Below are positions 3,043-54,841 of a DNA stretch of 64,000 nt, piece after piece; within the stretch, counting starts at the first letter, position 1; every line of letters begins with the position of its first letter. This DNA is from Bacteroidales bacterium. Its GTDB lineage: Bacteria; Bacteroidota; Bacteroidia; Bacteroidales; VadinHA17. The stretch is from contig JALONT010000012.1 of the NCBI GenBank assembly GCA_025454795.1, forward strand, positions 6,569 through 70,568, in the 5' to 3' direction. The position numbers and the translations under genes were made by a program. Under the pieces are notes generated by a model. That model searched no databases. It saw only the letters and a list, made by a program, of their open reading frames with translations, and was not told the origin of the DNA.

Positions 3043-4311
3043 ATGAATATTCTTATCCTGGGTTCAGGAGGCAGGGAACATGCACTCGCCTGGAAACTTG
3101 CCCGGAGCAGAAAGATCAGCAGGATCTTTATCGGACCCGGAAATGCAGGAACATCCTCGGTAGGGACTAACCTGGTGATTGACCCTGAAGATTTTAAAGG
3201 GGTAAAGAAAGCTGTTATTGAGAACAGCATCAATATGGTGGTGGTTGGTCCGGAGGCTCCCCTTGTTGAAGGTATCCATGATTTTTTTCTCAGCGATGAA
3301 CATCTTAAGAACATTCCTGTGATAGGTCCGAAAAAATCTGCCGCCAGACTCGAAGGGAGCAAGGATTTTGCAAAGGTGTTTCTTTCCCGGCATAAAATTC
3401 CAACCGCAGCTTATAAAAGTTTTGACGCTGGAACACTGAAAGAAGTTGTTCCGTTTCTGAGAACTCTCAAGCCTCCCTATGTTATTAAAGCTGATGGTCT
3501 TGCTGCGGGCAAAGGAGTAGTTATTATTGATAATATTTCTGAAGCCGGGAAGGAAGTAAGGGATATGCTTGGCGGAAAATTCGGAGATGCAGGGAAGAAA
3601 GTCGTTATAGAACAATTCCTTAAAGGCATTGAATTATCAGTATTCGTAATAACTGACGGCAAATCATATAAGCTGCTGCCTGAAGCTAAAGATTATAAGA
3701 GGATAGGAGCAGGAGATACCGGACTTAATACCGGAGGAATGGGTGCTGTATCTCCAGTCCCGTTCGCCAGTCCGGAATTTATGAAAAAGGTGAGGGAAAG
3801 AATAATCGATCCAACGATGAAAGGATTGTCAGATGATGGCATCATCTATAAGGGATTTCTTTTCTTCGGTTTAATAAACGTAGAGGGTGATCCTTTTGTA
3901 ATTGAATACAATGCCCGCCTCGGCGATCCTGAGTCTGAAGTAATCATCCCAAGGATAAAATCGGATCTCTTTGAGCTCATTGAAGGAGTAGCGATGGAGA
4001 ACCTTTCTGAAAGGAACTTTGAAACAGACAGCGGATTTGTAACGACGGTTATGCTGGTATCCGGAGGTTATCCGGAACACTATGAAAAGGGAAAGGAAAT
4101 CCACGGGCTTGAGCAAACAAAGGAATGCGTAGTCTTTCATTCCGGAACAAAAATATCGGATAATAAGGTAGTTACTTCAGGAGGCCGGGTGCTTGCTGTG
4201 AGCTCCATGGGAACAACAATGAAAGAATCACTAAACGGCTCATACGCGAATGCCCGTCTTTTATCATTCGAGAAAATGTATTTCAGACCTGATATAGGAT
4301 TTGATTTATAA
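3043..4311 (+). CDS. purD: phosphoribosylamine--glycine ligase
   Basis: MNILILGSGGREHALAWKL N-terminus, ATP-grasp core, and full-length collinearity with PurD (~422 aa). Confidence 0.95.
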   Translation: MNILILGSGGREHALAWKLARSRKISRIFIGPGNAGTSSVGTNLVIDPEDFKGVKKAVIENSINMVVVGPEAPLVEGIHDFFLSDEHLKNIPVIGPKKSAARLEGSKDFAKVFLSRHKIPTAAYKSFDAGTLKEVVPFLRTLKPPYVIKADGLAAGKGVVIIDNISEAGKEVRDMLGGKFGDAGKKVVIEQFLKGIELSVFVITDGKSYKLLPEAKDYKRIGAGDTGLNTGGMGAVSPVPFASPEFMKKVRERIIDPTMKGLSDDGIIYKGFLFFGLINVEGDPFVIEYNARLGDPESEVIIPRIKSDLFELIEGVAMENLSERNFETDSGFVTTVMLVSGGYPEHYEKGKEIHGLEQTKECVVFHSGTKISDNKVVTSGGRVLAVSSMGTTMKESLNGSYANARLLSFEKMYFRPDIGFDL

Positions 4312-4315
4312 GATA

Positions 4316-5308
4316 ATGTTAAGATTATTCAAAGGAACCGGCCCGGGTGTTATTTTACTTATTGTAGTTCTCCTGGGTGGATTATGGGCAAGTGCTTTTA
4401 TGGATCCTCAGATGCCGGGGCAGGAACCTTTTGAGACCAGCCCGATGCCGTTATATGGAATAGTTCAGTCAATTATCGGAAACCATCCCTTGTCAGGAGT
4501 GATTTTCACATTCCTGATTCTGTCTGTCATGCTTTTTCTTCTGGTTAATTTCAACACAATTGTCTTTTTTATCAATGAAAGAACATTTCTGCCGGCAGTC
4601 ATCTATCTGTTATTCAGCGCTATCTTTCCCGAGATGCAGGTTCTGAATCCGGTCCTTCCTGCTGCACTGTTTCTTTTACTGGCTTTTATCAGGATAATGG
4701 ATGCCTACAGAAAACCTGGTATTGCCTTTAACTTTTTTGATGCAGCCCTGCTCATAAGCATCGGAAGTCTCTTTTATGCTAACCTGATCTGGTTCGGATT
4801 GCTGGTTATTATAGGGATTGCCTTACTTAGGACAGGAAACATAAAAGAAATAGCAGTTTGCTTAACCGGACTGGCTGTACCCTATATTCTTACATTCGGC
4901 CTCTATTATGTACTGGGCAAGGATATCGGAACTTTTTTGACTGATATACGTGATAATCTTTTTGGAGAGAATGCCGGCTACGCTTTCACACGACTTTCCG
5001 TTATTATTCTTATATTACTGGGACTGATAATTCTCACCAGCATTGTTTACCTTATGATGCAGTTGAATTCAAAAAAAATAAAAACAAGAAAAACCTTTTA
5101 CCTGCTTCTATGGAGTTTTGTCATTCCACTGATATTATATTTGGTCTTATCATCTGTCTCCGTTGAATTAATATGGATAACAGGTATCCCGGCAGCTTAT
5201 TTTCTGGCCCATTATTTTGTATTTGAAAGGAAGAAACTTGTTCCGGAGATAATGTTTACCGGACTCCTGGTTTTAATACTGCTTCTGCAGCTGCTTACAA
5301 TAATCTGA
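4316..5308 (+). CDS. multi-pass integral membrane protein of unknown function
   Basis: About 9-10 hydrophobic segments and no catalytic motif that I recognise. The first ATG is at 4316; the track start at 4301 is TTG and overlaps purD. Confidence 0.55.
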   Translation: MLRLFKGTGPGVILLIVVLLGGLWASAFMDPQMPGQEPFETSPMPLYGIVQSIIGNHPLSGVIFTFLILSVMLFLLVNFNTIVFFINERTFLPAVIYLLFSAIFPEMQVLNPVLPAALFLLLAFIRIMDAYRKPGIAFNFFDAALLISIGSLFYANLIWFGLLVIIGIALLRTGNIKEIAVCLTGLAVPYILTFGLYYVLGKDIGTFLTDIRDNLFGENAGYAFTRLSVIILILLGLIILTSIVYLMMQLNSKKIKTRKTFYLLLWSFVIPLILYLVLSSVSVELIWITGIPAAYFLAHYFVFERKKLVPEIMFTGLLVLILLLQLLTII

Positions 5309-27139: not shown

Positions 27140-29356
27140 CTATTTCATTACACCTTTTGCCAGTAATAATTCAATCCTGTCAACCTTTTCCTGAAGCGTC
27201 TGAAGTTGTGATTTGAGATTATCGTTTTCTGATTTATAGGATCCGATCTGCTGTTGCTGTTCTTTAAAAGCTTGCAACAATATTACCGATATTTTGCTAT
27301 AGTCGATTGATAAAAATCCCCGACCATCCTTCTGGACAAGTTCCGGAAGTACTTCCTGTACCTCCTGTGCAATTACTCCGATCTGACGACCCTCAGGATG
27401 TGTATTTTTATCTTTGAAATAAAAATACACAGGGTTGATCTTTTCAATCAGTACGGTTCCATTTGATATGGACACAATATTTTCTTTTAATCTGAAATCA
27501 GAATTTTGGGCTAGGATGCCTGCAATCGTCATATTACCATTTTTATAAAGAGTGAGAGCATTTGATGCATCTCCTCCGTTTCCATTTCCAGCAACAAATA
27601 ATGGATCAGAAGGTACCCAGGAAAATGATGAAGTACAAGTTGTGTCGTTATAACTTCCAATAGCAACTGAAGCATAAGATTTGGCATTTGTATTCCAGCC
27701 CATTGCAGTAGAAGACCCTCCGTTTGCTTTAGTTCCAAATCCCGTTGCTAATGCAAAATCTCTGGTTGCAGATGAATGGTAACCCATGGCTATTGAGCCA
27801 TATGCTTTTGCATATGCATTATAACCCATTGCTATTGAATAGCTTCCGGATGCAGAAGACCATATTCCCATGGCAAGAGAGGATGTACCACTTGCAATAC
27901 AGGAACGACCTATAGAAATCGCTTCAGTGCCCGTAGCATAAGTATGAAGCCCCATTGCAGTCGAAAATTCACCGACTGCATTTGTATAATAACCTATTGC
28001 TGTTGAAAAATCTCCTATGGCTGAATCAGCTATCCCAATGCTAAATGACCCCTTGCCAATGGATTTGGATCCTTGTCCGATTGCAAAAGAGTAATTACCC
28101 GAAGCCGTGGCAACATCTGTGGCATAACCCGAATTATCAACTCCTGCACTACCCAATGCGAAACTTCGATATCCACTGGCAATAGCACCTCTGCCAAAGG
28201 CATAACTTTCTTCGTTTACTGCCCTTGCACTTTCGCCAAATGCAAAAGAATTTATTTTGTTTGCAACCGCATTCTTCCCTATTGCTGTTGAATAGTCTCC
28301 CCTTGCAATCGCTTTATACCCCATTGCCTGTGAATATTTACCTTTTGCTTTTGATTCAAAACCCGAAGCAAATGAGTTTACTCCCACACTGTCTTTATTC
28401 TCAATTAGTACCTTCCCTGTCATGAAAGCATTTTTTTGCGGGTACCAGAGTATCCTGTTCTGTGATGGTTTGATAATACCTGTGGTATCAATTGCAACAT
28501 TAAAAAAGTTCTGAATTCCATTTTTTGACATATCATAGCTGCCCACAGCAAAGCCTCCCTTTTTGCCTTTTGTCAAAGGATTATTGTCAATATAAATCCT
28601 TACACTGTCTTCACTCACATCAAGATAATTCTGAACAAGTCCCTTTGACATATCATAACCTCCAACCGCAAAACCACCTTTTTTTGCTTTGGTCAATGGA
28701 TTGCTGTCAAGATACATCCTGATGCTGTCCTTCGAAACCACCAGATATTTCTGTGATTCAGCTTTCCCTTCGCCAAAGCTACCCACAGCAAAGCCACCTT
28801 TTTTCCCTTTCGCTCCATCTGCGACATATACTCTTACTCCTTCAGGATAAACAGCAAAAACAGTCTGTCCAATCTTGTTTCTCACCTCGAATAATGCCGA
28901 ATCAACCGATGATTCTGATCCCCTGATGCCAAGTCTTTCTATCGGTCCCTCTACATCTTTTGCGACAAGTGAATATGGAACTGATAAAATCGGGGCAGTA
29001 CCCATTTCTGTTACTGTTCCGACAGGGTATTCAACAGTCGTTTTCAGGTAAAGAGGCTGTGCTTTCCAGTCGATCAGATCGAATGATGCAACGCCTGAAA
29101 CATATGTACCCGAACCCACAGCAAAGGAGACAAGTCCAAACTGGTTTGATGTAACATTATGATATTCTTCCCAGAGTACTATCCCGCCAGTAAGAGCTGT
29201 TTTTATTGCAACTGTCACCTTAAGCGGCTTATCCTTGAGAACTTCACCTGCAGTGTTTCGGACAATAGCCTGATAGTTAAAGCCCTGAGGGATCTGAGAA
29301 GACAAAAGATAAAAGACAAAAGATAAAAGTACCGAGAGGAGGAATTTCTTTTTCAT
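27140..29356 (-). CDS. surface protein with YadA-head-like (Hep_Hag) repeats and a C-terminal tail-fibre intramolecular chaperone (peptidase S74) domain
   Basis: Signal peptide. Three ~38-aa tandem repeats (KKGGFAVG...NPLTK). Many SxAxG / YSxAMG head-type repeats. C-terminal SDFRLKENI...GVIAQEVQEVLPELV...IDYSKI followed by a coiled coil. Confidence 0.75.
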   Translation of the reverse strand: MKKKFLLSVLLSFVFYLLSSQIPQGFNYQAIVRNTAGEVLKDKPLKVTVAIKTALTGGIVLWEEYHNVTSNQFGLVSFAVGSGTYVSGVASFDLIDWKAQPLYLKTTVEYPVGTVTEMGTAPILSVPYSLVAKDVEGPIERLGIRGSESSVDSALFEVRNKIGQTVFAVYPEGVRVYVADGAKGKKGGFAVGSFGEGKAESQKYLVVSKDSIRMYLDSNPLTKAKKGGFAVGGYDMSKGLVQNYLDVSEDSVRIYIDNNPLTKGKKGGFAVGSYDMSKNGIQNFFNVAIDTTGIIKPSQNRILWYPQKNAFMTGKVLIENKDSVGVNSFASGFESKAKGKYSQAMGYKAIARGDYSTAIGKNAVANKINSFAFGESARAVNEESYAFGRGAIASGYRSFALGSAGVDNSGYATDVATASGNYSFAIGQGSKSIGKGSFSIGIADSAIGDFSTAIGYYTNAVGEFSTAMGLHTYATGTEAISIGRSCIASGTSSLAMGIWSSASGSYSIAMGYNAYAKAYGSIAMGYHSSATRDFALATGFGTKANGGSSTAMGWNTNAKSYASVAIGSYNDTTCTSSFSWVPSDPLFVAGNGNGGDASNALTLYKNGNMTIAGILAQNSDFRLKENIVSISNGTVLIEKINPVYFYFKDKNTHPEGRQIGVIAQEVQEVLPELVQKDGRGFLSIDYSKISVILLQAFKEQQQQIGSYKSENDNLKSQLQTLQEKVDRIELLLAKGVMK

Positions 29357-37942: not shown

Positions 37943-39373
37943 TCAGTAAAGTTCCTCGATTAAAAATATCACATGTCTGTCCAGCGCGGACCAGTATTTT
38001 ATAGAATTCTTCCTTACCAGTTCCCAGTAAATATTACTGTCGAGGCCATGGACGAAATTAATTTCCTTAAGCTCGGAAATTATTCTTCCTGCAATTTCCG
38101 GCTTCAGTGTCAGCCGTATTTTCCTGTTCATATAAGTGAATTCAGCAGAAGCAGTTGCGACAGTGTCATTTCTGACAGTCAGGAGACCATGTCCTGGAGT
38201 GGCACCCGTGCTTACCTGAATCCCGTCATTCATGCAGCTGAGGGGAGGCAATGAACCGGCAAATGAGGTTGTTGAGAATTCATCGACACCGGTGTTAAAA
38301 TACTCCCTGGCCCTGATCCCCATTTTTACACCAACAATTGCAAATACACCAAGGTGACGATGAAGTTCATTTGCAAGTACCCCGGATGTCCACTCATCAA
38401 CCCCGAACTTTAAAATAATTTCATTTACTGAGGATTGTATATCATCAAAATAAAATTCAGGATCAACGGGCATCTCTTTGATTACCTGGTTCTTTGAGAC
38501 GGTTTCGCATTTAAGCATTCTGACCAAACCACCCATGAGCATCTCTTTTTGCGATGGAAAGCTCTCTGAATTTATTCCTGAAGTATCAGTTTTAAAGTAT
38601 TCCGGATACTGCAAAAAGAGTGCTAATGTTTCATCGGTAGCGAAATATAAAAAATCGTGTCCCTTAGCAACCTCTGAGCTGAAAAATCCGTAAAACTTTT
38701 CTCCGTATTTTGTGCTTATCCCCCTAATCTCTTCAACCAGGGCTTCGTTGAAAAGCTTTTCCTGTCCAAACCCTCTGACAGTTTTGACCGGGATCTCTCC
38801 TTTTAAAACATTTAATGAAGAGGTTGGGTCGATATTATAGTTAAATCCTTTGGTGTCGGATAGCCCGTTTGAACTCCAGATTATCTCCTTTACCTGTTGC
38901 CTGAACAGAGGAATGTTTTTCCTTGCAAATTCAGCGGTTGACATTCCTCCCAGACATAAAAAGCTTATCCGGGTTTTCTCATGCGAAAGGAGATCATCTA
39001 TTAAAGTAAAGCAATCAGGTGCCTTCTCAGGATTTATGCCGGTCTCATCACCCCATATAGCCTTCATGGGAATAGTAAATTCAGGTGATTTAAATGCTGA
39101 ATTTCTGTTGATCCCTACCGGAATGCCCTCATGATAGAATGAGTTCAGAAGACTCTTAATTTTGATGTATGCTTTTTCCCGGTTAAGAGCCCCCGGAGAA
39201 ACAGTTACTGCAAGAACCCTGATGTCTGGTGAAGCGAGAAGCATCGTTATTGCTCTCATGTCATCTATTCCGCCGTCAGTGTCAACTATAACATAATGAG
39301 ACGGTTTCCACGGATGAGAATATGCCAGGATATTAAGAATCAGTCCCAAAATGAGCAATAATGATCGTTTCAT
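37943..39373 (-). CDS. secreted fusion protein: inosine-uridine-preferring nucleoside hydrolase-like N-terminal domain plus FmdE-like C-terminal domain
   Basis: Signal peptide, then IVDTDGGIDDMRAI (nucleoside hydrolase Asp cluster). The C-terminal HLGVFAIVGVKMG...SCMNDGIQVSTGATPGHG resembles FmdE family motifs. Confidence 0.65.
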   Translation of the reverse strand: MKRSLLLILGLILNILAYSHPWKPSHYVIVDTDGGIDDMRAITMLLASPDIRVLAVTVSPGALNREKAYIKIKSLLNSFYHEGIPVGINRNSAFKSPEFTIPMKAIWGDETGINPEKAPDCFTLIDDLLSHEKTRISFLCLGGMSTAEFARKNIPLFRQQVKEIIWSSNGLSDTKGFNYNIDPTSSLNVLKGEIPVKTVRGFGQEKLFNEALVEEIRGISTKYGEKFYGFFSSEVAKGHDFLYFATDETLALFLQYPEYFKTDTSGINSESFPSQKEMLMGGLVRMLKCETVSKNQVIKEMPVDPEFYFDDIQSSVNEIILKFGVDEWTSGVLANELHRHLGVFAIVGVKMGIRAREYFNTGVDEFSTTSFAGSLPPLSCMNDGIQVSTGATPGHGLLTVRNDTVATASAEFTYMNRKIRLTLKPEIAGRIISELKEINFVHGLDSNIYWELVRKNSIKYWSALDRHVIFLIEELY

Positions 39374-39526: not shown

Positions 39527-39655
39527 TTCAATTACCGTTGGCTTTAGCCAACGGTATAACAGCCTAACAATAAAGGACTTTAGTCCTTATTTTAGGGCTA
39601 AAGCCCGTACCTGGGAAGTCTCTTCATCCGTTGGCTAAAGCCAACGGTAATTGAA
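39527..39655. repeat. 129-bp hairpin-rich element bounded by perfect 28-bp terminal inverted repeats (TTCAATTACCGTTGGCTTTAGCCAACGG)
   Basis: Left repeat 39527-39554; right repeat 39628-39655 is its exact reverse complement. Each repeat is itself a hairpin. Two internal hairpins (AAGGAC-TTTA-GTCCTT and GGGC-TAAA-GCCC) share the CTTTAG/CTAAAG core. Confidence 0.85.
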
Positions 39656-39898: not shown

Positions 39899-41419
39899 AT
39901 GAAAAAATTCCTGATATTGTTTGTTCCCGGATTGATAACAGGGATTTTATTGATAATTGGAGGGGGGATGGTCATCACTAAAACTTCAACAAACAAATTC
40001 TGCGTTTCATGTCACATTCATACGGCGGCTGATGCTTCCTGGAAAAGATCGGTACATTATGAAACACAGTCAGGATACCGGGTTGCATGTGTGGAGTGTC
40101 ATCTTCCTCCCACAGGAGATGCTTACCTCTGGGAAAAAGGTAAGACAGGTCTCAGGGATATCTGGAGTTACTGGACAAAAGATTCGGCATCTTTTAACTG
40201 GGAAGATCGCAGTAGACTTGAAATTGCCCGTGGATATGTTTACGAAGGCAGTTGCATAAAATGCCATGAGAATCTTTTTCCGGTAAAGCTGACAAAAAAG
40301 GGTGAAGATGCTCACCTCTATTATAAACAGTCGAAGAAGACGCCTGATCTTCATTGTATTAACTGCCATCTTAATGCCGGACATTATATGGAAGGTTATA
40401 CACATGGAAGCAATAAGACTTTTGGATCTGTCTCTTCAGCTCCAAAAGAAATTTTTAAAGAACCTGCAAAAGTGAATGGATTTGAATCATTCACCGAACA
40501 GATACCTCATTCTCCTGTATCATTCAGGATGGTAGCAATTCCAGGCGGGAAGTTTCTGATGGGAAGTCCTGAAGAAGAACCATTCCGTAAAGCTGATGAA
40601 GGACCTGTAAGGGAAGTTGAAATATCTCGGTTTTTCATGGCCGAGGTCGAAGTGACCTGGGATGAATATCTGGCGTTTTATGCTCAGACTGCTGCTGAAG
40701 GGAGGTCAACTGATACAGAAGGAGTAAGATCAAAAACAACTTCTGATATAGACGCTATATCAGGCGCGACACCTCCTTACGGGCAACCTGACCAGGGATG
40801 GGGAATGGATCAGAGACCTGCAATATCATTAAGCTATCATGCAGCACAAACATACTGCAGGTGGCTATCATCTGTAACCGGAAGATCTTACCGGCTGCCT
40901 GCGGAGGCGGAATGGGAATATGCATGCAGGGCAGGAACAACAACTCCCTATTCCTTTAAAGGTGATCCGGAAAAATTTCAAAAAACCGGATTTAAAGCAA
41001 AGCTGTCAAAGGATGATACTGCTGTAATTAATTCATATATAATATATAAGGCTAACAGTTCAGGCAAAACACAAACTTCTGAAATGGTAAAATCCAATCC
41101 GTTCGGATTGAAGAACATGACAGGCAATGTAGCTGAATTCTGCCTTGACTGGTACCAGCCTGATGCATACTCACAATATCCTGAAGGTGTTGTTAAAGAT
41201 CCACGCGGACCGGAAACCGGGGAAGAGCATGTGATTCGCGGAGGATCATACAGGAACTTTGCCGGATCTTTACGCAGTGCAGCCCGTGGTTATACACGGA
41301 CAGAAGAATGGCTGAAGACTGATCCTCAGATCCCCAAAAGCATTTGGTGGTATTCCGATTGTTTCTATGTGGGATTCAGAGTTGTGTGTGAATTTGACGA
41401 AACGACCGGGAAATTGTAA
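39899..41419 (+). CDS. membrane-anchored NapC/NirT/NrfH-type tetrahaem cytochrome c fused to an FGE-fold (SUMF1/EgtB/PvdO family) domain
   Basis: One N-terminal TM helix. Four CxxCH sites (CVSCH, CVECH, CIKCH, CINCH). Then IPGGKFLMGSP...WEYACRAG...RGGSY, typical of the FGE fold. Confidence 0.8.
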   Translation: MKKFLILFVPGLITGILLIIGGGMVITKTSTNKFCVSCHIHTAADASWKRSVHYETQSGYRVACVECHLPPTGDAYLWEKGKTGLRDIWSYWTKDSASFNWEDRSRLEIARGYVYEGSCIKCHENLFPVKLTKKGEDAHLYYKQSKKTPDLHCINCHLNAGHYMEGYTHGSNKTFGSVSSAPKEIFKEPAKVNGFESFTEQIPHSPVSFRMVAIPGGKFLMGSPEEEPFRKADEGPVREVEISRFFMAEVEVTWDEYLAFYAQTAAEGRSTDTEGVRSKTTSDIDAISGATPPYGQPDQGWGMDQRPAISLSYHAAQTYCRWLSSVTGRSYRLPAEAEWEYACRAGTTTPYSFKGDPEKFQKTGFKAKLSKDDTAVINSYIIYKANSSGKTQTSEMVKSNPFGLKNMTGNVAEFCLDWYQPDAYSQYPEGVVKDPRGPETGEEHVIRGGSYRNFAGSLRSAARGYTRTEEWLKTDPQIPKSIWWYSDCFYVGFRVVCEFDETTGKL

Positions 41420-41445: not shown

Positions 41446-42804
41446 ATGAAGAAAGCCAGTATCTCAAGGCGTAATTTTTTAGGTAAAGCTGCCACTGTGG
41501 GGGCAGCAGGAATAGTTGTTCCTTCATTATTATCTGGCTGTGATCGTTATAATAAGAAACGGGTCAAAGCTATATCGTGGCTCGACCAGGCTCCTGACGG
41601 ACCAGTTCTTAAGGCAGGTGTTATAGGCTGTGGAGGTCGTGGTACAGGAGCTGCCATTAACTTTCTGAATGCAGGGCCAAAACTTCAGATTACAGCTCTG
41701 GGAGACACATTCAAGGACCGTATTGAGAATTGCAGGGCAAAGATATTAAAGGAAAAAGGACAGGAAGTTCTTGAAGAAATGTGCTTTATAGGTTTCGATG
41801 CTTACCAGAAAGTGATTAACTCCGGGGTCGACATTATTATTAATGCCACCCCGCCATTCTTTCGCCCCGAAATTATTGCTGCAGCTGTTGCAGCCCGTAA
41901 GCATGTTTTTGCTGAAAAACCTGTGTGCGTTGATCCTGTTGGTGCAAGGTCAATAATGGCAACTGCATTAAAAGCCAAAGAATTGGGATTGACAATTGTT
42001 ACGGGGACCCAGCGCCGTCATCAGCGCGATTATGTGGCTAACTATCAGAACGTTCAGGCTGGTGCAATAGGCGATATAGTTGGCGGAACTGTTTGGTGGA
42101 ATGGTGGAAAACTATGGCATCGGGATAATAATCCTGAATGGAGTGAAATGGAATGGATGATCCGCGACTGGGTCAACTGGTGCTGGCTCTCAGGCGATCA
42201 TATTGTAGAACAGCATGTCCATAATCTTGATGTACTGAACTGGTTTACAGGTTCACATCCGGTAAAAGCAGTTGGCATGGGATCAAGGCAGAGGCGTGTT
42301 ACCGGTGATCAGTTTGATAGTTTCAGTGTCGATTTTGTATTTGAGGACGGAAGACATTTCCATAGCATGTGCAGACAGATAAATGGTTGTGCTAATAATG
42401 TTTCGGAAAGACTCCAGGGAGCTGCCGGCTCAACAAACTGCCAGAATTCAATCCTTGACCTTGCAGGAACAGAAATATGGAAATATGAGTACCCGAAGGA
42501 TGAAAAAGGTATTGAAAACAAAGCATTAATGAAGGCTGCCATGGACCAGGAGCATATCGACTTTATTAACTCAGTAAGGAATAATCTGGCTTTCAATGAA
42601 CTTGAGAACACAGCAATCTCAACTTTGGTAGCTATCATGGGTCGTGTTTCAGCTTATACAGGTAAAGAAGTAACCTGGGATGAGATGATGAACTCTGATC
42701 TCAGACTTGGTCCTAAAGTTTTTGAATTTGGTCCGGTTGATGTTCCAAAAGAGGTGCCAATAGCAGGTCTTGCTTATGTACCTCAGGAAAATAACAAGAA
42801 ATAA
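41446..42804 (+). CDS. Tat-exported Gfo/Idh/MocA family oxidoreductase (probable lipoprotein)
   Basis: Twin-arginine motif SRRNFLGKAA followed by LLSGC, a Rossmann GVIGCGGRG motif, and a Gfo/Idh/MocA C-terminal domain. Confidence 0.85.
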   Translation: MKKASISRRNFLGKAATVGAAGIVVPSLLSGCDRYNKKRVKAISWLDQAPDGPVLKAGVIGCGGRGTGAAINFLNAGPKLQITALGDTFKDRIENCRAKILKEKGQEVLEEMCFIGFDAYQKVINSGVDIIINATPPFFRPEIIAAAVAARKHVFAEKPVCVDPVGARSIMATALKAKELGLTIVTGTQRRHQRDYVANYQNVQAGAIGDIVGGTVWWNGGKLWHRDNNPEWSEMEWMIRDWVNWCWLSGDHIVEQHVHNLDVLNWFTGSHPVKAVGMGSRQRRVTGDQFDSFSVDFVFEDGRHFHSMCRQINGCANNVSERLQGAAGSTNCQNSILDLAGTEIWKYEYPKDEKGIENKALMKAAMDQEHIDFINSVRNNLAFNELENTAISTLVAIMGRVSAYTGKEVTWDEMMNSDLRLGPKVFEFGPVDVPKEVPIAGLAYVPQENNKK

Positions 42805-42819
42805 TCTAATAATTCCTTT

Positions 42820-43764
42820 ATGAATAGTTCCCGGAGAGACTTCATAAGAAAAGCCACGGCAACAGGAGCCGCTATCATAGCTGCTCCTGCTGTATTCGGT
42901 TCTGAAGAACTGGCAAAAAGACGCAGATCAGCCGAACCTGTGGTTCCTTTTAAGCTTAAATATGCACCCAGCCTTGGAATGTTCAGGGAGCATGCAGGTA
43001 CAGATCCTGTCGATAACATTAAATTCTGTTACGATCAGGGATTCAGGGCAATGTTTGATAACGGCTTTCCTAAACGACCAGTAGATGAGCAGGATAAAAT
43101 AGCTAATGAGATGCAGAAGCTGGGGATGCTGCTGGGTCCTTATGTTCTCTATGCTGATTTTTCAGTAACCTCTTTCGTCCTGAATAAACCGGAGGTCAGG
43201 GAAATGCTTATAAACAAAATGAAGGAGGGGGTTGAAGTAGTTAAAAGGACAGGGGCTAAGTGGGCTCTGATGGTTCCCGGACGATATGATGAAAAACTTC
43301 ACCGGGATTTTCAGACTGCAAATGTCATCGACAACCTTCGTTATTGCTGCGAAATTGCTGAGCCGGAAGGTCTTACAATTGTTCTCGAACCGCTAAATAC
43401 CCTCAGAAATCACCCTGGATTATTTCTGACAGGAATTCCGCAGGCATATTCAATATGTCGTGCCGTAAACAGTACTTCCTGCAAAATAGTCAATGATATT
43501 TATCACCAGCAGATCACTGAAGGCAACCTGATCCCAAACATTGAAGCAGCATGGGATGAGATTGCAGCTTTCCATTGCGGAGATAACCCCGGCCGGAATG
43601 AACCCTATACCGGAGAGATTAATTTTAAAAATGTATTCAAATACATTTACAGCCGTAAATATGAGGGCGTTATCTGCATGGAGCATGGTAAAAGCTTAAA
43701 AGGGAAAGAAGGCGAACTTAAACTACTGGAAGCTTATCGCGAAGCTGATAGCTTTGAAGTATAA
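42820..43764 (+). CDS. Tat-exported hydroxypyruvate-isomerase-like (Hyi family) xylose-isomerase-fold TIM barrel
   Basis: SRRDFIRKATATGAA Tat motif. LEPLN...NDIYHQQITEGNL...GDNPGRNEPYTGEINF...CMEH matches the Hyi-family pattern. Confidence 0.8.
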   Translation: MNSSRRDFIRKATATGAAIIAAPAVFGSEELAKRRRSAEPVVPFKLKYAPSLGMFREHAGTDPVDNIKFCYDQGFRAMFDNGFPKRPVDEQDKIANEMQKLGMLLGPYVLYADFSVTSFVLNKPEVREMLINKMKEGVEVVKRTGAKWALMVPGRYDEKLHRDFQTANVIDNLRYCCEIAEPEGLTIVLEPLNTLRNHPGLFLTGIPQAYSICRAVNSTSCKIVNDIYHQQITEGNLIPNIEAAWDEIAAFHCGDNPGRNEPYTGEINFKNVFKYIYSRKYEGVICMEHGKSLKGKEGELKLLEAYREADSFEV

Positions 43765-43808: not shown

Positions 43809-44939
43809 ATGTATAAATCAATGAAAAAATATTCAGTTTTGGTATATTCACTATTATTCTTTACCGGGCTTTTCTCTACCGGTTGCAGGGAAAATTCAAT
43901 TTTTTTTGCCGGCGGATTCTCAAACGAGGGCGAAAAGGGATTCTCAGTTTTTAAGTTCGACAACCGGAATGGAATCGCTGAGAAAATATCAGATTGGGAT
44001 GCAGGAACCAAACCAGCTTTTTTCTGTTATAACAGCAAGCGTAATCTGATCTACATCCTAAATGAAGTTATGGAATTCAGGGGAACCCCAGGTAGCGGAC
44101 TTACTACATTGGAATACGATCCCCTTAATAACCTTATAAAAAAAAGAAATGAAATTTTAGTCCCATACGGAGGATCGTGCCATATTTCATTGTCAGCAGA
44201 TAAACAATTTTTATTTTTTGCAAATTATGCTACGGGTTCTGTTGCAGTCGTCGGCCTGGATGAAAATGGGATTCCTGAAAGAGTTACCGATTCTATATTA
44301 TACGCAACGGAAGCCCAGGATGTTTCACATCCCCATATGATATTACAAGATCCCTCAGGTAAACATATATACCTGACCGACCTGGGTCTCGACAGGATCG
44401 TTAAATATGATCTTGATACCAGCACCGGGAAGCTGATTCAATCTGAGAATGGTATTATTGAGCTATCTGAAGGCTCTGGTCCCCGTCATTTTGTGTTTAA
44501 TCCGGATGGTTCACAGCTTTATGTTATCAATGAACTGGGATCAACACTAATGGTATTTAATGTTGTTGAAAATGGTGTTCTGAAACTGGTTCAGACATTG
44601 CCAACAGTTAAGCCGGGATTTGAGGGCAAAAATTTTTGTGCTGATATCCATATCGGAACAAATAACAAATTCCTTTACGGGTCGAACAGAGGCGAGAATT
44701 CAATTGTTGTCTTCAGGATTGAAGGTGACGGAACATTAACTCTTGCAGGAAGTGTATCGTGTGGAGGCGACTGGCCAAGGAATTTTATAATAGATCCGTC
44801 TGGTAAATTCCTTCTCGTGGGAAATCAGAGATCAGATAATATTTCTGTATTAAGGATCAACCGTAAGACGGGTATTCCAGGAAAACCTGTAAGCAATACT
44901 TCCCTTAAGGCACCCGGCTGTATCAGATTCTGGGAATAG
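43809..44939 (+). CDS. lactonase family lipoprotein (7-bladed beta-propeller, 6-phosphogluconolactonase/cycloisomerase-like)
   Basis: Lipobox FSTGC. Repeated blade motifs and GSGPRHFVFNPDG / NRGENSIVVF, typical of the PF10282-type lactonases as I recall them. Confidence 0.75.
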   Translation: MYKSMKKYSVLVYSLLFFTGLFSTGCRENSIFFAGGFSNEGEKGFSVFKFDNRNGIAEKISDWDAGTKPAFFCYNSKRNLIYILNEVMEFRGTPGSGLTTLEYDPLNNLIKKRNEILVPYGGSCHISLSADKQFLFFANYATGSVAVVGLDENGIPERVTDSILYATEAQDVSHPHMILQDPSGKHIYLTDLGLDRIVKYDLDTSTGKLIQSENGIIELSEGSGPRHFVFNPDGSQLYVINELGSTLMVFNVVENGVLKLVQTLPTVKPGFEGKNFCADIHIGTNNKFLYGSNRGENSIVVFRIEGDGTLTLAGSVSCGGDWPRNFIIDPSGKFLLVGNQRSDNISVLRINRKTGIPGKPVSNTSLKAPGCIRFWE

Positions 44940-49491: not shown

Positions 49492-50505
49492 TTAAAGAAC
49501 CTCAGTCAGTTTTACGGGGCGATTTTCCAGGAGTGATTTCTTTGCTGCCAATGCAACAGCAACAGCAACTAATCCGTCATTGCCGGATTCTGAAAGGGGC
49601 AGATCTTTAATGACTGCATTACAAAACATTTTCATTTCAGTGGTAAATGCCTCAATATACCTGTCCATGAAGAAATTCAACGGCAGTGATCTGTGCACAC
49701 CATCACTGGCAAAATAGAAGTGATTATCAGGGAAATTATTGTCAGCACATAGCATACCTTTCGAACCAAATATTTCAACTCTCTGGTCGTATCCGTATAC
49801 TGCCTTCCGGCTGTTGTCGATGACTCCGATTGCCCCATTGGTAAAGGTGAGCAAAATTACTGCTGTGTCTACATCACCTGCTTTGCCGATTTCAGGATCA
49901 ACCAGCACTGCAGCTTTTGTGAATACCTCAGTAACTTCGCTTCCGGTAATATATCTGGCCATATCAAAATCGTGTATGGTCATGTCCATGAACATACCCC
50001 CCGATGCTTCAATATATCCGGGATGAGGAGGAGTCGGATCACGTGAAGTGATCTTTAGAATGTGAGGATCGCCAATTTTTCCTTCAGCAACCAGCTGCTT
50101 GATCTTCAGAAAATTAGGATCAAAACGACGATTAAATCCTATCATCAGCTTAACACCTGCCTTTTCAACAGCCTTTAATGATCCTTTGATGACATCAAGA
50201 GAAAGGGCAATAGGTTTTTCACAAAAAATATGTTTTCCGACGTTGGCTGCATCTATAATATATTGTGCATGCGTATCTGTCGGAGAACAGATAGCAACGG
50301 CATCAACTTCGGGAAGATTGAATACGTCTTTATAGTTGCTGAATACCTTATTTATTCCGAAATTCTTCGCTACTTCTTTTGCACTAACAAGATTAGTGTC
50401 AGCAATTGCAACTAATTCAGCTTGAGGAACACTCTGAACCATTGTTGCAATATGGACCTTGCCAATTCTTCCGGTACCTATTACTCCAAGTTTTAGTTTT
50501 TTCAT
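49492..50505 (-). CDS. iolG: inositol 2-dehydrogenase (Gfo/Idh/MocA, cytoplasmic)
   Basis: Start at MKKLKLGVIGTGRIG. CEKP and GFNRRFDPNF motifs. Sits within the iol gene context. Confidence 0.85.
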   Translation of the reverse strand: MKKLKLGVIGTGRIGKVHIATMVQSVPQAELVAIADTNLVSAKEVAKNFGINKVFSNYKDVFNLPEVDAVAICSPTDTHAQYIIDAANVGKHIFCEKPIALSLDVIKGSLKAVEKAGVKLMIGFNRRFDPNFLKIKQLVAEGKIGDPHILKITSRDPTPPHPGYIEASGGMFMDMTIHDFDMARYITGSEVTEVFTKAAVLVDPEIGKAGDVDTAVILLTFTNGAIGVIDNSRKAVYGYDQRVEIFGSKGMLCADNNFPDNHFYFASDGVHRSLPLNFFMDRYIEAFTTEMKMFCNAVIKDLPLSESGNDGLVAVAVALAAKKSLLENRPVKLTEVL

Positions 50506-50539
50506 TTTATAAATTTTAAGGTTCAATTAGTTATTGATA

Positions 50540-51439
50540 TTATAAGCCAAGAGATTTAATAAACTCCCTGTTGTGTTGTGCACAAACTTTTGGATTTCCC
50601 ATCCCGGGGAGGACATCCTGCTCAACAACTATCCAACCGGAGTACCTCTGTGCTTTGAGCTTCTTGACAATAGCTTTGAAATCGACCGATCCCTTTCCAA
50701 GCTCACAAAAAACGCCATTGGCAACGGATTTAAAATAATCCCATCCTTCAGCCCTGGATTTTTCTGCCGCACCCGGATGGCAATCTTTGAAATGGATATG
50801 CCATATCCTGTTCCTGTGCTCTTTCAGCGCTTCAACAGGATTTCCACCTCCAAACATATAGTGACCCATATCGAGAACAAGACCAACAAGAGAGGGATCA
50901 GTTAGGGAAAGCAGATTGTCAATTTCAGCAGGTGTTTCCACATACCCTGCACAATGATGGTGAAAGACAGTTCGAAGACCTGTTCTGGATTTTACTTCAG
51001 ATGCAACAAGATTTGCTCCTTCAGCAAAAATTTTCCACTCATCTTTGCTGAGTCCCGTTGATGGAGTTACTCTTCCTGCATTCAATGTCCGTTCTTTCAC
51101 GCTTCCGTTTTTATCGGCAAGAACGATAAAAGCATCACTATAACCCGCATCAGCCATCAGCTTTGCAGTTTTTACTGCTGTTTCGGCACCCGCAGCATGT
51201 TTTGACCTGTCCTTCATAAAAACCGGGACAAACGCTCCAACCATTGAAAGTGATCGTTTGTCGAGCTCCTTTTTTAATTTAAAAGGTATTGTCGGCATAA
51301 AACCCCAGTCGCCAAGCTCAGAGCCTTCATAACCGGTTTCCCGGATTTCATCAAGAACCTGTTCAAATCCGGCAGCTTTACCACCCAGATCAAATTCGAG
51401 GACACCCCATGAACAAGGGGCATTGGCAATTTTTATCAT
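50540..51439 (-). CDS. iolE: myo-inosose-2 dehydratase-like TIM barrel
   Basis: FHHH..G..ET..E, D.GH, HIHFKD and YSGWIVVEQD align with my recollection of B. subtilis IolE. The N-terminal half is less similar. Confidence 0.7.
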   Translation of the reverse strand: MIKIANAPCSWGVLEFDLGGKAAGFEQVLDEIRETGYEGSELGDWGFMPTIPFKLKKELDKRSLSMVGAFVPVFMKDRSKHAAGAETAVKTAKLMADAGYSDAFIVLADKNGSVKERTLNAGRVTPSTGLSKDEWKIFAEGANLVASEVKSRTGLRTVFHHHCAGYVETPAEIDNLLSLTDPSLVGLVLDMGHYMFGGGNPVEALKEHRNRIWHIHFKDCHPGAAEKSRAEGWDYFKSVANGVFCELGKGSVDFKAIVKKLKAQRYSGWIVVEQDVLPGMGNPKVCAQHNREFIKSLGL

Positions 51440-51476
51440 AGTAAATTGAAATTAGAAAAACATTTATATTGTTTTA

Positions 51477-52949
51477 TTAAAACTTTCTTGTCCATTCATC
51501 GTGCCAGCGCTCAATGACCACCTTTGTCTGGGTATAAAATTCTACAGCGTGAAAAGATTGTCCATGGAGATCTCCAAAGAAGCTTTCTTTCCAACCGCTG
51601 AAAGGGAAGAATGCCATGGGTGCTGCAATCCCAATGTTCACCCCGATATTGCCTGCCTGAGCATCGTGCCTGAATTTTCTGGCTGCAGCTCCGCTGGTGG
51701 TAAAGATGCTGGCAGCATTACCATGAACGCTATCATTTGTCAATTTTATTGCATCATCCAGTGAATCAACATTATTGATGATAATTACCGGACCGAATAT
51801 TTCTGTTTTGTACAATTCACTTTCAATATCAACACTCCCTAATATTGTTGGGCCAATAAAGTTTCCATCTTCACATCCAGGAACTTTAATATTTCTTCCG
51901 TCGAGTAATAGTTTTGCACCGTCATCAATACCCTTTTGTATCAGTTTTTCAATCCGCTCCTTACTCTCCATAGTAATAACCGGTCCTATTTCCACACCAT
52001 TTGTCATCCCGTTTCCAATTTTCTTTGATTTTGAGGCTTTGATAATTTTTTCAGTAAAGATTTCTCCGGCCTTCCCGACAGTCAGAATAATCGCAACAGC
52101 AAGACATCTCTGTCCTGCACATCCATAAGCACTGTCGGTAATAATTTTAACGGTAGCATCTACATCAGCATCAGGCATTATAACTACCGGATTCTTTGCA
52201 CCTCCCAGAGCCTGAACCCGTTTTCCATGGGCAGTGCCGGTTTTATATATGTATTTTGCTATAGGGGTAGAACCCACAAAACTAACTGCCTTAATATAAG
52301 GATGTTCGAGAATTGCATCGACGGTTGCCTTACCGCCATGAACCATATTCAAAACTCCTGCGGGCAGGTTTAATTCCTCAAATAATTCGAAGACGCGGTT
52401 CATTGTTCGAGGTACTTTCCCTGAAGGCTTTATTATATATGTATTACCGCAGGCAATAGCATAAGGCATGAACCAGAACGGTATCATAACCGGGAAATTG
52501 AATGGAGAGATACTTGCGCCAACGCCCAATGGCTGGCGTATATAATACTCATCAACGCCGACAGCTATATCTTCAGAAAAATCACTCTGCAGAAGTGTCG
52601 GTATACCACAGGCTACCTCAATATTTTCAATGGCACGAGCTAATTCCCCTTTGGATTCTGCAAAAGTCTTGCCACATTCACTGGTACATATTTCAGCGAT
52701 CTCATCTGAGTTTTTTTCCAGGATCTGTTTCATCTTAAAGAGATACTGTACGCGCTGAGTGGGAGGCTTATTACGCCATGACCACCATGCCTGATGAGCA
52801 CTCTCTGCTGCATCATCAATATCCTCTTTTGATCCTGCAGGAACCTTTGCAAGACATTCACCGGTAGCCGGATTTAAAACATCCCGGACTTTTGATTCCT
52901 TGCTATCACACCATTGTCCGTTAATGAAGTTTTTTAAAATTCTTGTCAT
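51477..52949 (-). CDS. iolA: CoA-acylating (methyl)malonate-semialdehyde dehydrogenase
   Basis: ALDH fold with the catalytic Cys context GCAGQRCLA; 490 aa; iol gene context. Confidence 0.9.
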   Translation of the reverse strand: MTRILKNFINGQWCDSKESKVRDVLNPATGECLAKVPAGSKEDIDDAAESAHQAWWSWRNKPPTQRVQYLFKMKQILEKNSDEIAEICTSECGKTFAESKGELARAIENIEVACGIPTLLQSDFSEDIAVGVDEYYIRQPLGVGASISPFNFPVMIPFWFMPYAIACGNTYIIKPSGKVPRTMNRVFELFEELNLPAGVLNMVHGGKATVDAILEHPYIKAVSFVGSTPIAKYIYKTGTAHGKRVQALGGAKNPVVIMPDADVDATVKIITDSAYGCAGQRCLAVAIILTVGKAGEIFTEKIIKASKSKKIGNGMTNGVEIGPVITMESKERIEKLIQKGIDDGAKLLLDGRNIKVPGCEDGNFIGPTILGSVDIESELYKTEIFGPVIIINNVDSLDDAIKLTNDSVHGNAASIFTTSGAAARKFRHDAQAGNIGVNIGIAAPMAFFPFSGWKESFFGDLHGQSFHAVEFYTQTKVVIERWHDEWTRKF

Positions 52950-52981
52950 ATAATTATATTATTTATTGTTATCAGTTTATT

Positions 52982-54841
52982 TTACAGGAAGTACCTCTGT
53001 TTCTTCTTATTCTCGATGTAGCTCTGATAAGCTTTCTTAACTGTATCTTTTTCAGCGACCTCTGCAACAGCTACTTCCCACCAGGCGTATCCCGGAATGC
53101 CTTTATAGAGATCAGTATCAATAGTTATAACAGTTGTCACAGCCTGTTTTTTAGCTTCTGCAAGAGCATTTTTTAAAGACTTAATATCAGTCGCTTTAAT
53201 AACATGTGCTCCAAGACTTTGTGCATTTTGTGCAAAATCGACAGGAAGAGTATCTCCTGTCAGTAATCCGGATTTTTCGTCGCGGTAGCGGTATTTCGTA
53301 CCGAAGCGCTTCGATCCTATCGATTCGGACAATCCTCCAATACTGCCGAATCCATTGTTATTCAGAAGGATAATTATAACTTTAATTCCTTCCTGGATTG
53401 CTGTTACGATTTCATTATTCATCATGAGATAGTTGCCATCACCAACCATGACATAAATCTCACGGTCAGGGCAGGCCATTTTTGCACCAATTCCTGCTGC
53501 ACATTCATATCCCATAGTTGAGTAACCATATTCAAGATGAAAACCTTTTGGATCCAGTGTCCTCCAGAGCTTATGGAGATCTCCGGGTAAACTTCCGGCA
53601 GCGCAAAGCACAACGTCGCGGGGTTCTGCAAACTCATTAACAGCACCAACAACTTCAGCCTGTGAAACCGGGAGATCCCCCGTGACCTTACAGAATTCGC
53701 TGACCTGTTTATCCCAGGTTTTATTTGAATTGGCAGCGCGTGTCATATATTCATCTGAAACCCTGAATCCGGCTAATAAGCTTAAGAGTTCCTCAAGGCA
53801 TACTTTAGCATCACCAGTTACAGGCAGTGCAGAGTGCTTATACGAATCGAATTCAGCAATATTAATGTTAATGAATTTTACATCAGGATTCTGGAAGGCG
53901 GTTTTTGACGCAGTTGTAAAATCGCTGTAACGTGTTCCGATACCGATAATAAGATCAGCCTCTGAAGTAAATTCATTTGCGCCGGGAGTTCCTGTCACAC
54001 CCACAGCCCCAAGGTTTAAATGGTGGTTATAAGGGAGCGAACCTTTCCCTGCAAAGGTCTCAGTAACGGGGATCCCGCATTGTTCAATAAGATTAATCAG
54101 GGCTTCCGTTGCCTGGCTGTATATCACTCCGCCGCCGGCCACAATGACTGGTTTTGTTGAAGATTTGATCATTGCAGCAGCTTTTTCTAAGATGGAAGAA
54201 TCAGGTCTGGGCCTTGCAATCCTCCAAACCCTTTTCAGAAACAGCTCTTCCGGAAAGTTAAAAGCTTCTGCCTGCACATCCTGTGGTAACGCCAGGGTGA
54301 CAGCTCCGGTATCCGAAGGTGATGTAAGTACTCTCATCACCTCAGGAAGAGAAGTAATTATTTGTTCAGGCCGGTTAATCCTGTCCCAGTATTTTGACAC
54401 CGGTTTAAAACAATCATTCACTGAAATATCCTGTGAATCAGATGATTCAAGCTGTTGTAAAACAGGTGCAACATTGCGACGTGCAAAAATATCACCAGGC
54501 ATAAGCAGCACTGGTAACCTGTTGATTGTTGCACAGGCTGCCCCGGTTATCATGTTTGTTGCGCCGGGACCAATTGAGGAGATACATGCAAAAGCACCCA
54601 GGCGGTTCTTCATTTTCGCATAAGCTGTAGCAATATGCACTGAAGCCTGTTCGTTTCTGGTCATATAATAACGGAAATCGGGATTTTCCATCAGTCCTTC
54701 ACCAACTCCGGCCACAATACCATGGCCGAATATTCCCAGGCAGCCGGCAAAAAACTGATTTTCAATACCGTCCCTTTCAACATACTGGTTTTTCAGAAAT
54801 CTGACAATTGCCTGTCCGACAGTAAACCGATTTGTTTGCAT
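52982..54841 (-). CDS. iolD: 3D-(3,5/4)-trihydroxycyclohexane-1,2-dione acylhydrolase (ThDP-dependent)
   Basis: N-terminus FTVGQAIVRFLKNQYVERDG...IFGHG parallels B. subtilis IolD; GDG..LM ThDP motif; 619 aa. Confidence 0.9.
   Translation of the reverse strand: MQTNRFTVGQAIVRFLKNQYVERDGIENQFFAGCLGIFGHGIVAGVGEGLMENPDFRYYMTRNEQASVHIATAYAKMKNRLGAFACISSIGPGATNMITGAACATINRLPVLLMPGDIFARRNVAPVLQQLESSDSQDISVNDCFKPVSKYWDRINRPEQIITSLPEVMRVLTSPSDTGAVTLALPQDVQAEAFNFPEELFLKRVWRIARPRPDSSILEKAAAMIKSSTKPVIVAGGGVIYSQATEALINLIEQCGIPVTETFAGKGSLPYNHHLNLGAVGVTGTPGANEFTSEADLIIGIGTRYSDFTTASKTAFQNPDVKFININIAEFDSYKHSALPVTGDAKVCLEELLSLLAGFRVSDEYMTRAANSNKTWDKQVSEFCKVTGDLPVSQAEVVGAVNEFAEPRDVVLCAAGSLPGDLHKLWRTLDPKGFHLEYGYSTMGYECAAGIGAKMACPDREIYVMVGDGNYLMMNNEIVTAIQEGIKVIIILLNNNGFGSIGGLSESIGSKRFGTKYRYRDEKSGLLTGDTLPVDFAQNAQSLGAHVIKATDIKSLKNALAEAKKQAVTTVITIDTDLYKGIPGYAWWEVAVAEVAEKDTVKKAYQSYIENKKKQRYFL

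Follow-up and report, generated by a model that had tools for sequence, protein, structure and literature searches.

The window analyzed here is a 64,000-nucleotide stretch of a Bacteroidales bacterium genome (assembly GCA_025454795.1, contig JALONT010000012.1), with positions counted from its first letter. At 39899..41419 on the forward strand lies an intact open reading frame (ORF) of 506 residues in which a NapC/NirT-type tetrahaem cytochrome module (PF03264) is fused to a domain with the fold of formylglycine-generating enzymes (FGEs; PF03781); the next gene on the same strand encodes an exported oxidoreductase of the Gfo/Idh/MocA family (hereafter Gfo). The protein belongs to a real, widespread and currently mis-annotated family, whose most plausible role is that of a haem-flavin outlet through which periplasmic sugar dehydrogenases of the Gfo type pass on their electrons.

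A tetrahaem module fused to an FGE fold without its catalytic cysteines

An N-terminal membrane anchor occupies approximately residues 4-26 (39908..39976), where the top Kyte-Doolittle 19-mer starts at residue 4 and the AlphaFold2 (AF2) model has a helix at residues 2-28. Four CxxCH motifs for haem c attachment follow within 40001..40369, at residues 35-39, 64-68, 119-123 and 153-157 (40001-40015, 40088-40102, 40253-40267 and 40355-40369), and the Pfam NapC/NirT match covers residues 4-164 (5.7e-26, 91.7 bits against a cut-off of 24.1). Residues 195-506 (40481..41416) comprise a subfamily linker (FTEQIP), the FGE-fold domain and a C-terminal extension, as seen from the Pfam FGE-sulfatase match at residues 211-467 (1.2e-42, 146.8 bits against 23.3), the AF2 model and Foldseek. 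The preliminary description of this DNA, made from the letters alone, had proposed one transmembrane helix with four CxxCH motifs followed by a complete FGE-like domain, and both halves of that architecture hold; the strings GGKFLMGSP (216-224), WEYACRAGT (339-347) and RGGSYRNFAGSLRSAARGY (447-465) are present. The subfamily signature DPQIPKSIWW (41321..41350) lies in the extension, and its residues D475, P476, P479, W483 and W484 are invariant in 233 of 233 family sequences. In the AF2 model, which contains no cofactors, the predicted local distance difference test (pLDDT) is mostly above 90 in the FGE-fold domain and below 50 at residues 121-178 and 268-288. Only 5 of the 5051 genome ORFs of at least 80 residues have two or more CxxCH motifs, and PF03781 and PF03264 occur together in every one of the best 120 homologues listed; the fusion architecture is therefore not due to chance.

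The segment RGGSY...SAARGY (41237..41293) stands in place of the FGE segment that carries the catalytic Cys pair, as judged from alignment to the solved structures 6s07, 5nxl and 6muj. In the HMMER alignment, GGSFLCHESYCNRYRVAAR of the T. curvata FGE (6s07) is opposite GGSY, a 3-residue gap and RNFAGSLRSAAR in the query, with no Cys; the T. curvata segment with the two catalytic, copper-binding Cys is GGSFLCHESYCNRY, and the query reads GGSY, the gap and RNFAGSL there. The pair is likewise missing in the alignments to 5nxl and 6muj. The initial statement that no Cys follows RGGS is thus upheld by all three alignments, the pair being absent and 3 residues deleted.

The genome of the window (G000; 3.29 Mb, 99% complete) contains 16 sulfatase-family matches and a radical S-adenosylmethionine anaerobic sulfatase-maturating enzyme (anSME; 499.7 bits against a curated cut-off of 349.45). 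It encodes five FGE-fold ORFs, namely the fusion protein, its paralogue (56% identical) and a further three that read, by sequence and not by scan, as a GldK/PorK-like protein, a GldJ-like protein and a short form; the FGE Cys pair was found in none of the five. A functional FGE was therefore rejected: the PF03781 fold is present, but the two catalytic copper-binding Cys after RGGS are missing and the genome has an anSME, so that canonical FGE function is ruled out and the early suspicion that the domain is probably not a sulfatase maturase is supported. The FGE ancestry, the 16 sulfatase-family matches and a sulfatase two genes downstream in one metagenomic locus (L094) could still be taken to suggest a haem-linked maturase, in which the FGE-like domain would oxidatively modify a sulfatase or Gfo with the haems and the quinone pool as the sink instead of O2. 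We consider this highly improbable, given the deleted copper-binding Cys pair, the anSME in the genome, and the fact that a sulfatase is a neighbour only at L094 among the annotated loci whereas Gfo is the constant neighbour.

Structurally, the FGE-like domain is closest to PvdO (5hha; Foldseek 5.3e-18), with FGEs next at about 1e-15, and its best NCBIfam match is also PvdO (1.3e-27). The idea of a repurposed FGE fold thus stands, with PvdO nearest and ahead of true FGEs. Membership of the named families was rejected in each case: PvdO scores 96.6 bits against an equivalog cut-off of 500, GldK/PorK and GldJ score 94.6 against 350 and 40.1 against 458.2, and EgtB, OvoA and SenA score 58.2 against 360, 28.4 against 400 and 59.4 against 420, with only the FGE-like part matched. 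The NCBIfam cytochrome subfamilies TorC (73.4 against 478.2), NrfH (65.4 against 134.2) and napC_nirT (51.5 against 310.6) also score far below their cut-offs.

A predicted ApbE flavinylation motif in the FGE-fold domain

In one locus of a haem-less relative of the family (L093), a divergent gene for the flavin transferase ApbE lies next to the FGE-like gene; it was this adjacency that directed attention to the loop D285-T291 of the fusion protein. The available text of PMC12052999 gives the ApbE recognition motif as D-x-x-[S/T]-G-A-[S/T], with seven residues sufficient and flavin mononucleotide (FMN) attached to the last Ser/Thr, and that of Meheust 2021 (PMC8238504) gives it as [S/T]GA[S/T]. 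The fusion protein has an exact match, D285-A-I-S-G-A-T291 (40751..40771), as does the in-genome paralogue, and in the wider form D285-A-I-S-G-A-T291-P-P-Y-G this is the most conserved loop of the family. Position 285 is Asp in 232 of the 233 family sequences, and position 291 is Thr in 228 and Ser in 5. The full canonical motif is present in 180 of the 214 four-haem members, with G-P-[ST] in 26 and [VI]-G-A-[ST] in 7; of the 17 haem-less members, 9 have [ST]-R-P-[ST]. The c-type haem motifs behind a transmembrane anchor place the motif outside the cytosol. From these sequence features, FMN is predicted to be held covalently on T291, in a loop of low model confidence: the 10-residue blocks around residues 285-291 average pLDDT 40-52 in the AF2 model, beside the disordered loop 268-288. 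PvdO has DTRPGRE at the homologous place, in a stretch where the rest of the solved FGE folds give no alignment.

Genome-wide, 10 of the 5051 ORFs bear the motif: the two NapC-FGE paralogues, two NqrB/RnfD-family proteins, one secreted DUF362 protein and five that are probably chance matches. NqrB/RnfD-family proteins are known ApbE substrates, according to the available text of PMC8238504 and PMC12052999. The positional conservation of Asp285 and Thr/Ser291 across aligned sequences is the stronger argument, outweighing the bare presence of a motif. The DUF362 protein (G000:C28:94108-96093, L165) has 661 residues, a type IX secretion system C-terminal sorting domain and DALSGAT at residue 48, and may itself be another unrecognised ApbE substrate.

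A single ApbE gene is present in the genome (C11:3007-3843, 265.8 bits), with an NqrB-like gene nearby on the same contig. ApbE neighbours were sought by tblastn with two ApbE proteins over all collected loci. The ApbE gene is directly beside a haem-less FGE-like gene in L085, L086, L088, L092, L093 and L098, and two genes away from one in L171. Haem-less loci with the R-P variant of the motif have ApbE within two genes in 7 of 12 cases, and one of those without it (L084) lies on a contig too short to show an upstream neighbour; the search found ApbE at none of the 4 haem-less loci that lack R-P, and at only 2 (L113 and L116) of about 52 generic FGE loci.

These observations bear on a simpler proposal, in which the FGE fold would be a docking or lectin-like module that holds Gfo or a glycan near the tetrahaem module, in the manner of PorK/GldK or FGE-like immunity proteins, and DAISGAT would be a structural loop that is not flavinylated. 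The FGE fold often binds proteins, and PorK-PorN ring structures are among the fold matches; the residues that never vary (Trp, Asp, Glu and Arg) are not classic cofactor ligands, and the G-P-T and R-P-T variants depart from the ApbE consensus. Such a non-redox adaptor nevertheless fails to account for two things, namely why Asp285 and Thr/Ser291 are kept in a loop that varies elsewhere and why ApbE genes lie beside haem-less relatives, and it gives no route for the hydride of NAD(P)H to one-electron haems; we judge it unlikely.

Gene neighbourhoods and spread of the family

Immediately downstream of the fusion gene, on the same strand and separated by gaps of 26, 15 and 44 nt, lie three genes. 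The first (41446..42804) encodes a 452-residue lipoprotein Gfo carrying a signal for twin-arginine translocation (Tat) and predicted to be the electron donor (PF01408, PF22725; Tat TIGR01409); the second (42820..43764), a 314-residue Tat-signal, xylose-isomerase-like TIM barrel (PF01261); and the third (43809..44939), a 376-residue lipoprotein 7-bladed beta-propeller lactonase (PF10282, 6.4e-88; lipobox N-terminus) that is kept downstream in many related loci. The preliminary description had captured the Cys loss and missed both the ApbE motif DAISGAT (285-291) and the conserved Tat-Gfo neighbour. An alignment of 26 Gfo orthologues shows no variation in the Tat RRxF, in the lipobox Cys32 or in the Rossmann GxGxxG. 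The closest solved relative of Gfo is the C-glycoside 3-oxidising DgpA1 (4.2e-10), and those of the TIM barrel include the 3-keto-D-glucoside 4-epimerase 6wn6 (3e-08). Assignment of Gfo as a BT_2158-type glycoside 3-dehydrogenase was rejected (NF058561, 21.8 bits against 750); Tat export and the Gfo fold are shared.

A scan of genome contigs gave 351 relatives, of which 80 were kept as related loci, mostly in Bacteroidales, Rikenellaceae, Prolixibacteraceae and Marinilabiliaceae records, with a few labelled as other phyla. Carriers that can be grown in culture include Sunxiuqinia elliptica CGMCC 1.9156, Maribellus luteus XSD2 and a Maribellus sp. The gene after NapC-FGE is Gfo in 47 of the 80 (27 of them with the TIM barrel too) and SusC-like in 24; Gfo lies farther downstream in 2, too little sequence is available in 5, and the next gene is something else in 2. 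In all three of the SusC-next genomes examined, Gfo is on the same strand 9.6-18 kb on, and two regions that were fetched show an inserted SusC-SusD(-DUF6057-PD40) block, then Gfo, then the TIM barrel. One metagenomic fused locus (L094) has a Tat-signal sulfatase after Gfo (3282-4862, +), the only sulfatase neighbour among the annotated loci.

A word-indexed protein search returned 7994 of 8000 candidates at E ≤0.001, and the best 120 homologues listed are 74-88% identical and 488-533 residues long; they are named in the source 'formylglycine-generating enzyme' or 'SUMF1/EgtB/PvdO family nonheme iron enzyme', and thousands of entries so named are probably misnamed. The spread is patchy: of 401 Bacteroidota species genomes sampled evenly, 5 had a match at E ≤1e-60, with the fusion in G000 (two copies), G034 and G388 and haem-less forms in G298 and G358. 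The order in G034 is NapC-FGE, Tat-Gfo, Tat-TIM. In G388, which shares only the phylum (48% identity), a Tat-TIM barrel and a 3-keto-disaccharide hydrolase (PF06439, BT2157 family) precede NapC-FGE, and Tat-Gfo, a GH78 rhamnosidase and a TonB receptor follow it. The second copy in the window's genome heads an operon on another contig (G000:C72, L001, 8133-13755, -) of NapC-FGE (511 residues, the 56%-identical paralogue), two Gfo genes (456 and 437 residues, the latter of GFO_IDH_MocA_C2 type) and a ThuA-domain gene (416 residues), with MsrAB upstream; this order recurs in the metagenome loci L104 and L105. The Gfo, TIM-barrel, 3-keto-disaccharide hydrolase, ThuA and GH78 contexts lead us to read the system as one of periplasmic sugar or glycoside oxidation.

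Stand-alone, signal-peptide relatives without haem motifs are 40-48% identical to the fusion protein in the family alignment and share the linker (YTETIPGT) and the C-terminal insertion DPQxPxSxWW, which is not in FGEs. The representative search gave mostly multi-FGE repeat proteins; the full-length ones of use were P0125, P0126, P0128, P0134 and P0180, and P0140, P0156 and P0159 were left out as they look like chimeric or partial gene calls. A metagenome scan with the stand-alone relatives gave 79 loci. Where haem-less members have enough flanking sequence (L090-L093 and L099), Tat-Gfo is directly next in 5 of 5 and the TIM barrel is near in 4 of 5, which suggests that the FGE-like domain, not the cytochrome, is what goes with Gfo. 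In L171 (G298), L172 (G358) and L093, haem-less FGE-like genes are found among YceI, ApbE, PSCyt1/PSCyt2/PSD1 and DUF1501 genes, the order in L171 being FGE-like, YceI, ApbE, PSCyt1/2-PSD1 cytochrome, DUF1501. The PSCyt1/PSCyt2/PSD1 and DUF1501 pair is abundant and uncharacterised in Planctomycetes-type genomes; its position hints that a PSCyt cytochrome may stand in for the fused NapC module in these three loci.

Several other features of the window were observed. Divergent from NapC-FGE is a gene (37943-39373, -) for a secreted 476-residue fusion of an inosine-uridine nucleoside hydrolase-like domain and FmdE, kept beside NapC-FGE in most Bacteroidales-type loci (47-67% identity). Between the two genes, an intergenic element of about 130 nt (39527-39655) has 39-nt inverted terminal arms, each with the hairpin CCGTTGGCnnnnGCCAACGG; the hairpin has 10 genome copies, several at contig ends and one about 1.2 kb upstream of the C72 paralogue, and the element looks like a dispersed repeat of the repetitive extragenic palindromic (REP) or miniature inverted-repeat transposable element (MITE) kind. 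A cluster at 49492-54841 (-) with a 344-residue Gfo/Idh/MocA protein, a TIM barrel, an aldehyde dehydrogenase and a thiamine pyrophosphate enzyme is separate from the periplasmic system and is read as cytoplasmic and inositol-catabolism-like. At 27140-29356 (-) lies a gene for a 738-residue adhesin- or tail-fibre-like protein with YadA-head repeats and a Peptidase_S74 (endosialidase chaperone) domain.

A proposed electron route and its relation to known systems

Together, these results suggest a route by which electrons from a periplasmic sugar or glycoside would reach menaquinone by way of Gfo-bound NAD(P), an FMN attached covalently to the FGE fold and, last, the four haems; we assign this route a probability of about 0.5. 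The fusion protein would be a membrane-anchored, periplasm-facing electron-transfer subunit, with the NapC/NirT module (one transmembrane helix, four c-type haems) as the link to the menaquinone pool and Thr291, in a mobile loop of the FGE-fold domain, as the holder of the FMN. The probably co-transcribed Tat-lipoprotein Gfo, with tightly bound NAD(P), would oxidise the sugar or glycoside; the tethered FMN would re-oxidise the bound NAD(P)H and convert two-electron to one-electron transfer; and menaquinone could pass the electrons on, with cytochrome bd or fumarate reductase as the sink. Further processing of the oxidised sugar would fall to the lactonase (in the distant relative, the 3-keto-disaccharide hydrolase) and the Tat-TIM barrel. 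The TIM-barrel, 3-keto hydrolase and ThuA contexts suggest oxidation at C3; alternatively, the lactonase suggests oxidation at C1. The architecture, the Cys-pair loss, the motif and its conservation, the neighbourhoods and the accessory genes were computed here; we infer that FMN is bound covalently, that Gfo is the partner, which way the electrons run and what is oxidised.

The topology, with c-type haems, Tat partners and a periplasmic ApbE, fits this route. Haems carry single electrons and cannot be reduced directly by a hydride donor, the usual go-between being a flavin; to our knowledge, a Sec-inserted periplasmic domain gets a flavin only by ApbE-type covalent attachment. Genes for fumarate reductase b558, cytochrome bd and a CcsBA-like cytochrome c synthase are present in the genome.

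The direction of flow, from sugar to quinone, is drawn from redox potentials and the catabolic gene context. On the same grounds the preliminary description, which had proposed a redox or substrate-docking module fed by the haems, is retained in the spirit of a redox module beside haems and turned around in direction, the domain being likelier to feed the haems. The reverse would have menaquinol oxidised and electrons passed via the FGE-like (flavin) domain to a periplasmic reductase, be it Gfo as a keto-sugar reductase or some other acceptor. NapC/NirT, NrfH, CymA and TorC are quinol dehydrogenases, TorC, the best NCBIfam cytochrome match, has an additional C-terminal domain at which its reductase docks, and flavinylated extracytosolic fumarate/urocanate reductases are fed from the membrane (PMC8238504, in its available text). 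Menaquinol is too weak a reductant for NAD(P)+, however, and clusters that contain SusC/D blocks, a lactonase or a 3-keto-disaccharide hydrolase speak for the oxidation and breakdown of sugars; reverse flow is accordingly rated as distinctly unlikely.

A number of observations weigh against the sugar-to-menaquinone route and its flavin. NapC/NirT proteins classically oxidise quinol and do not reduce quinone. No Cys or His is invariant across the family alignment of the FGE-like domain, and no recognisable flavin-binding fold or flavin pocket was identified in it. About 5 of the 10 motif-bearing ORFs look like chance, so the motif by itself is only suggestive; Pro replaces the motif Ala in 40 of the 233 members, R-P occurs in most haem-less ones, and the G-P-T and R-P-T variants (Ala-to-Pro, Gly-to-Arg) are not among the known ApbE motifs. 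Common descent links the 233 sequences, so that their counts overstate independent support. ApbE adjoins 0 of the 90 fused loci searched by tblastn, the window locus included, and the fused proteins would therefore have to use the single housekeeping ApbE; it is a reasonable inference that the G-A-T fused forms do so and that the divergent R-P-T forms bring a dedicated transferase. AF2 models the haem domain and the motif loop poorly, and its model yields no usable distance from the loop to the haems or to any flavin pocket. Among 120 listed longer proteins (887-2530 residues; search with query residues 195-506) there is no fusion with PF01408 (Gfo) or PF02424 (ApbE), all of them being generic fusions (multi-FGE, kinase or caspase) that are 27-38% identical. 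A complex prediction of residues 185-506 with mature Gfo (33-452) gave 0.00 in two runs without controls, which counts neither for nor against the route. Flavinylation and the electron flow are, throughout, computational predictions.

A bolder version is that the FGE fold is an unrecognised class of ApbE-flavinylated redox domain, in which a swinging-arm FMN on a flexible loop takes the hydride inside the Gfo active site and passes single electrons to the NapC tetrahaem wire, or to PSCyt-type cytochromes in the haem-less forms; we offer this tentatively, as possible but short of an even chance.

No report of a NapC-FGE fusion or of an FGE fold with flavinylation was found in the literature searched, and no FGE-fold ApbE substrate, although the large supplementary cluster tables of Meheust 2021 could already list PF03781 near apbE; the three small supplements of that paper have no PF03781. 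'Sulfatase' does not occur in the main texts of PMC8238504, PMC12052999 and a 2024 preprint, where other substrate folds are named, nor do 'FGE' and 'Gfo' in the main texts of PMC8238504 and the preprint. Among NapC-type cytochromes, and equally among ApbE substrates, the fusion would count as a novel variant. If the bolder version is correct, respiration would have a new point of entry in the form of a periplasmic glycoside:menaquinone oxidoreductase, by which NAD(P)-locked periplasmic dehydrogenases are recycled without a second sugar substrate. A cytochrome-flavin outlet beside such enzymes would let periplasmic glycoside oxidation contribute to energy conservation, with fumarate or oxygen respired. 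The FGE fold would then be the seventh known among ApbE substrates, structurally unrelated to the others, and its scaffold would have a further use; this might guide work on orphan FGE-fold proteins such as PvdO, NirV and the PSCyt-associated forms.

Compared with known systems, the fusion protein shares its N-terminal transmembrane anchor and four CxxCH motifs with NapC, NrfH, CymA and TorC/DorC (PF03264 above cut-off), and, as in TorC, a further periplasmic domain follows at the C-terminus. TorC/DorC carry a fifth haem in that domain, whereas the fusion protein has only four CxxCH motifs, all before residue 158, and an FGE fold instead; and whereas the NapC/NirT family has terminal reductases as partners, the predicted partner here is an NAD(P)-dependent dehydrogenase. 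With the FGEs (SUMF1, T. curvata, S. coelicolor) it has in common the fold (phmmer 1.4e-20 to 6s07) and the motifs RLPTEAEWEYA and GNVxE; FGEs have the Cys pair that it lacks, and lack its flavinylation motif and DPQxPKSxWW insertion. PvdO is a periplasmic FGE-fold protein needed for pyoverdine chromophore oxidation. Like the fusion protein it is periplasmic, without the Cys pair and linked to an oxidation step (by its NCBIfam name), but it has no cytochrome and no Gfo neighbour.

The ApbE substrates described in the available texts (NqrC/RnfG FMN_bind, NqrB/RnfD, DUF2271, DUF3570, Flavodoxin_4, FMN_red and the flavocytochrome fumarate/urocanate reductases) share with the fusion protein the motif, an extracytosolic place and the coupling to membrane electron carriers, and some relatives of the fusion protein have ApbE genes next to them; the FGE-like carrier fold and the fused NapC-type tetrahaem module set it apart from them. 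Tat-exported Gfo/Idh/MocA dehydrogenases with locked-in NAD(P) are common in the glycan-utilisation loci of Bacteroidota and Planctomycetota. BT2156-BT2160 of B. thetaiotaomicron, ThuAB and LacABC have, as do the clusters here, a Tat-Gfo-type dehydrogenase with TIM-barrel, DUF1080-type 3-keto-disaccharide hydrolase or ThuA neighbours (PMC8121099, in its available text). For the Tat-Gfo glycoside 3-dehydrogenase BT2158 the same text gives the oxidant as unknown and proposes an unidentified second sugar (Liu 2021, PMC8121099). A Tat-exported Gfo with locked NAD(P) needs an oxidant; B. thetaiotaomicron is said in the available text to have no cytochrome outlet (PMC8121099), whereas here a candidate one is encoded beside Gfo, which would make the question of NAD(P) re-oxidation directly testable.

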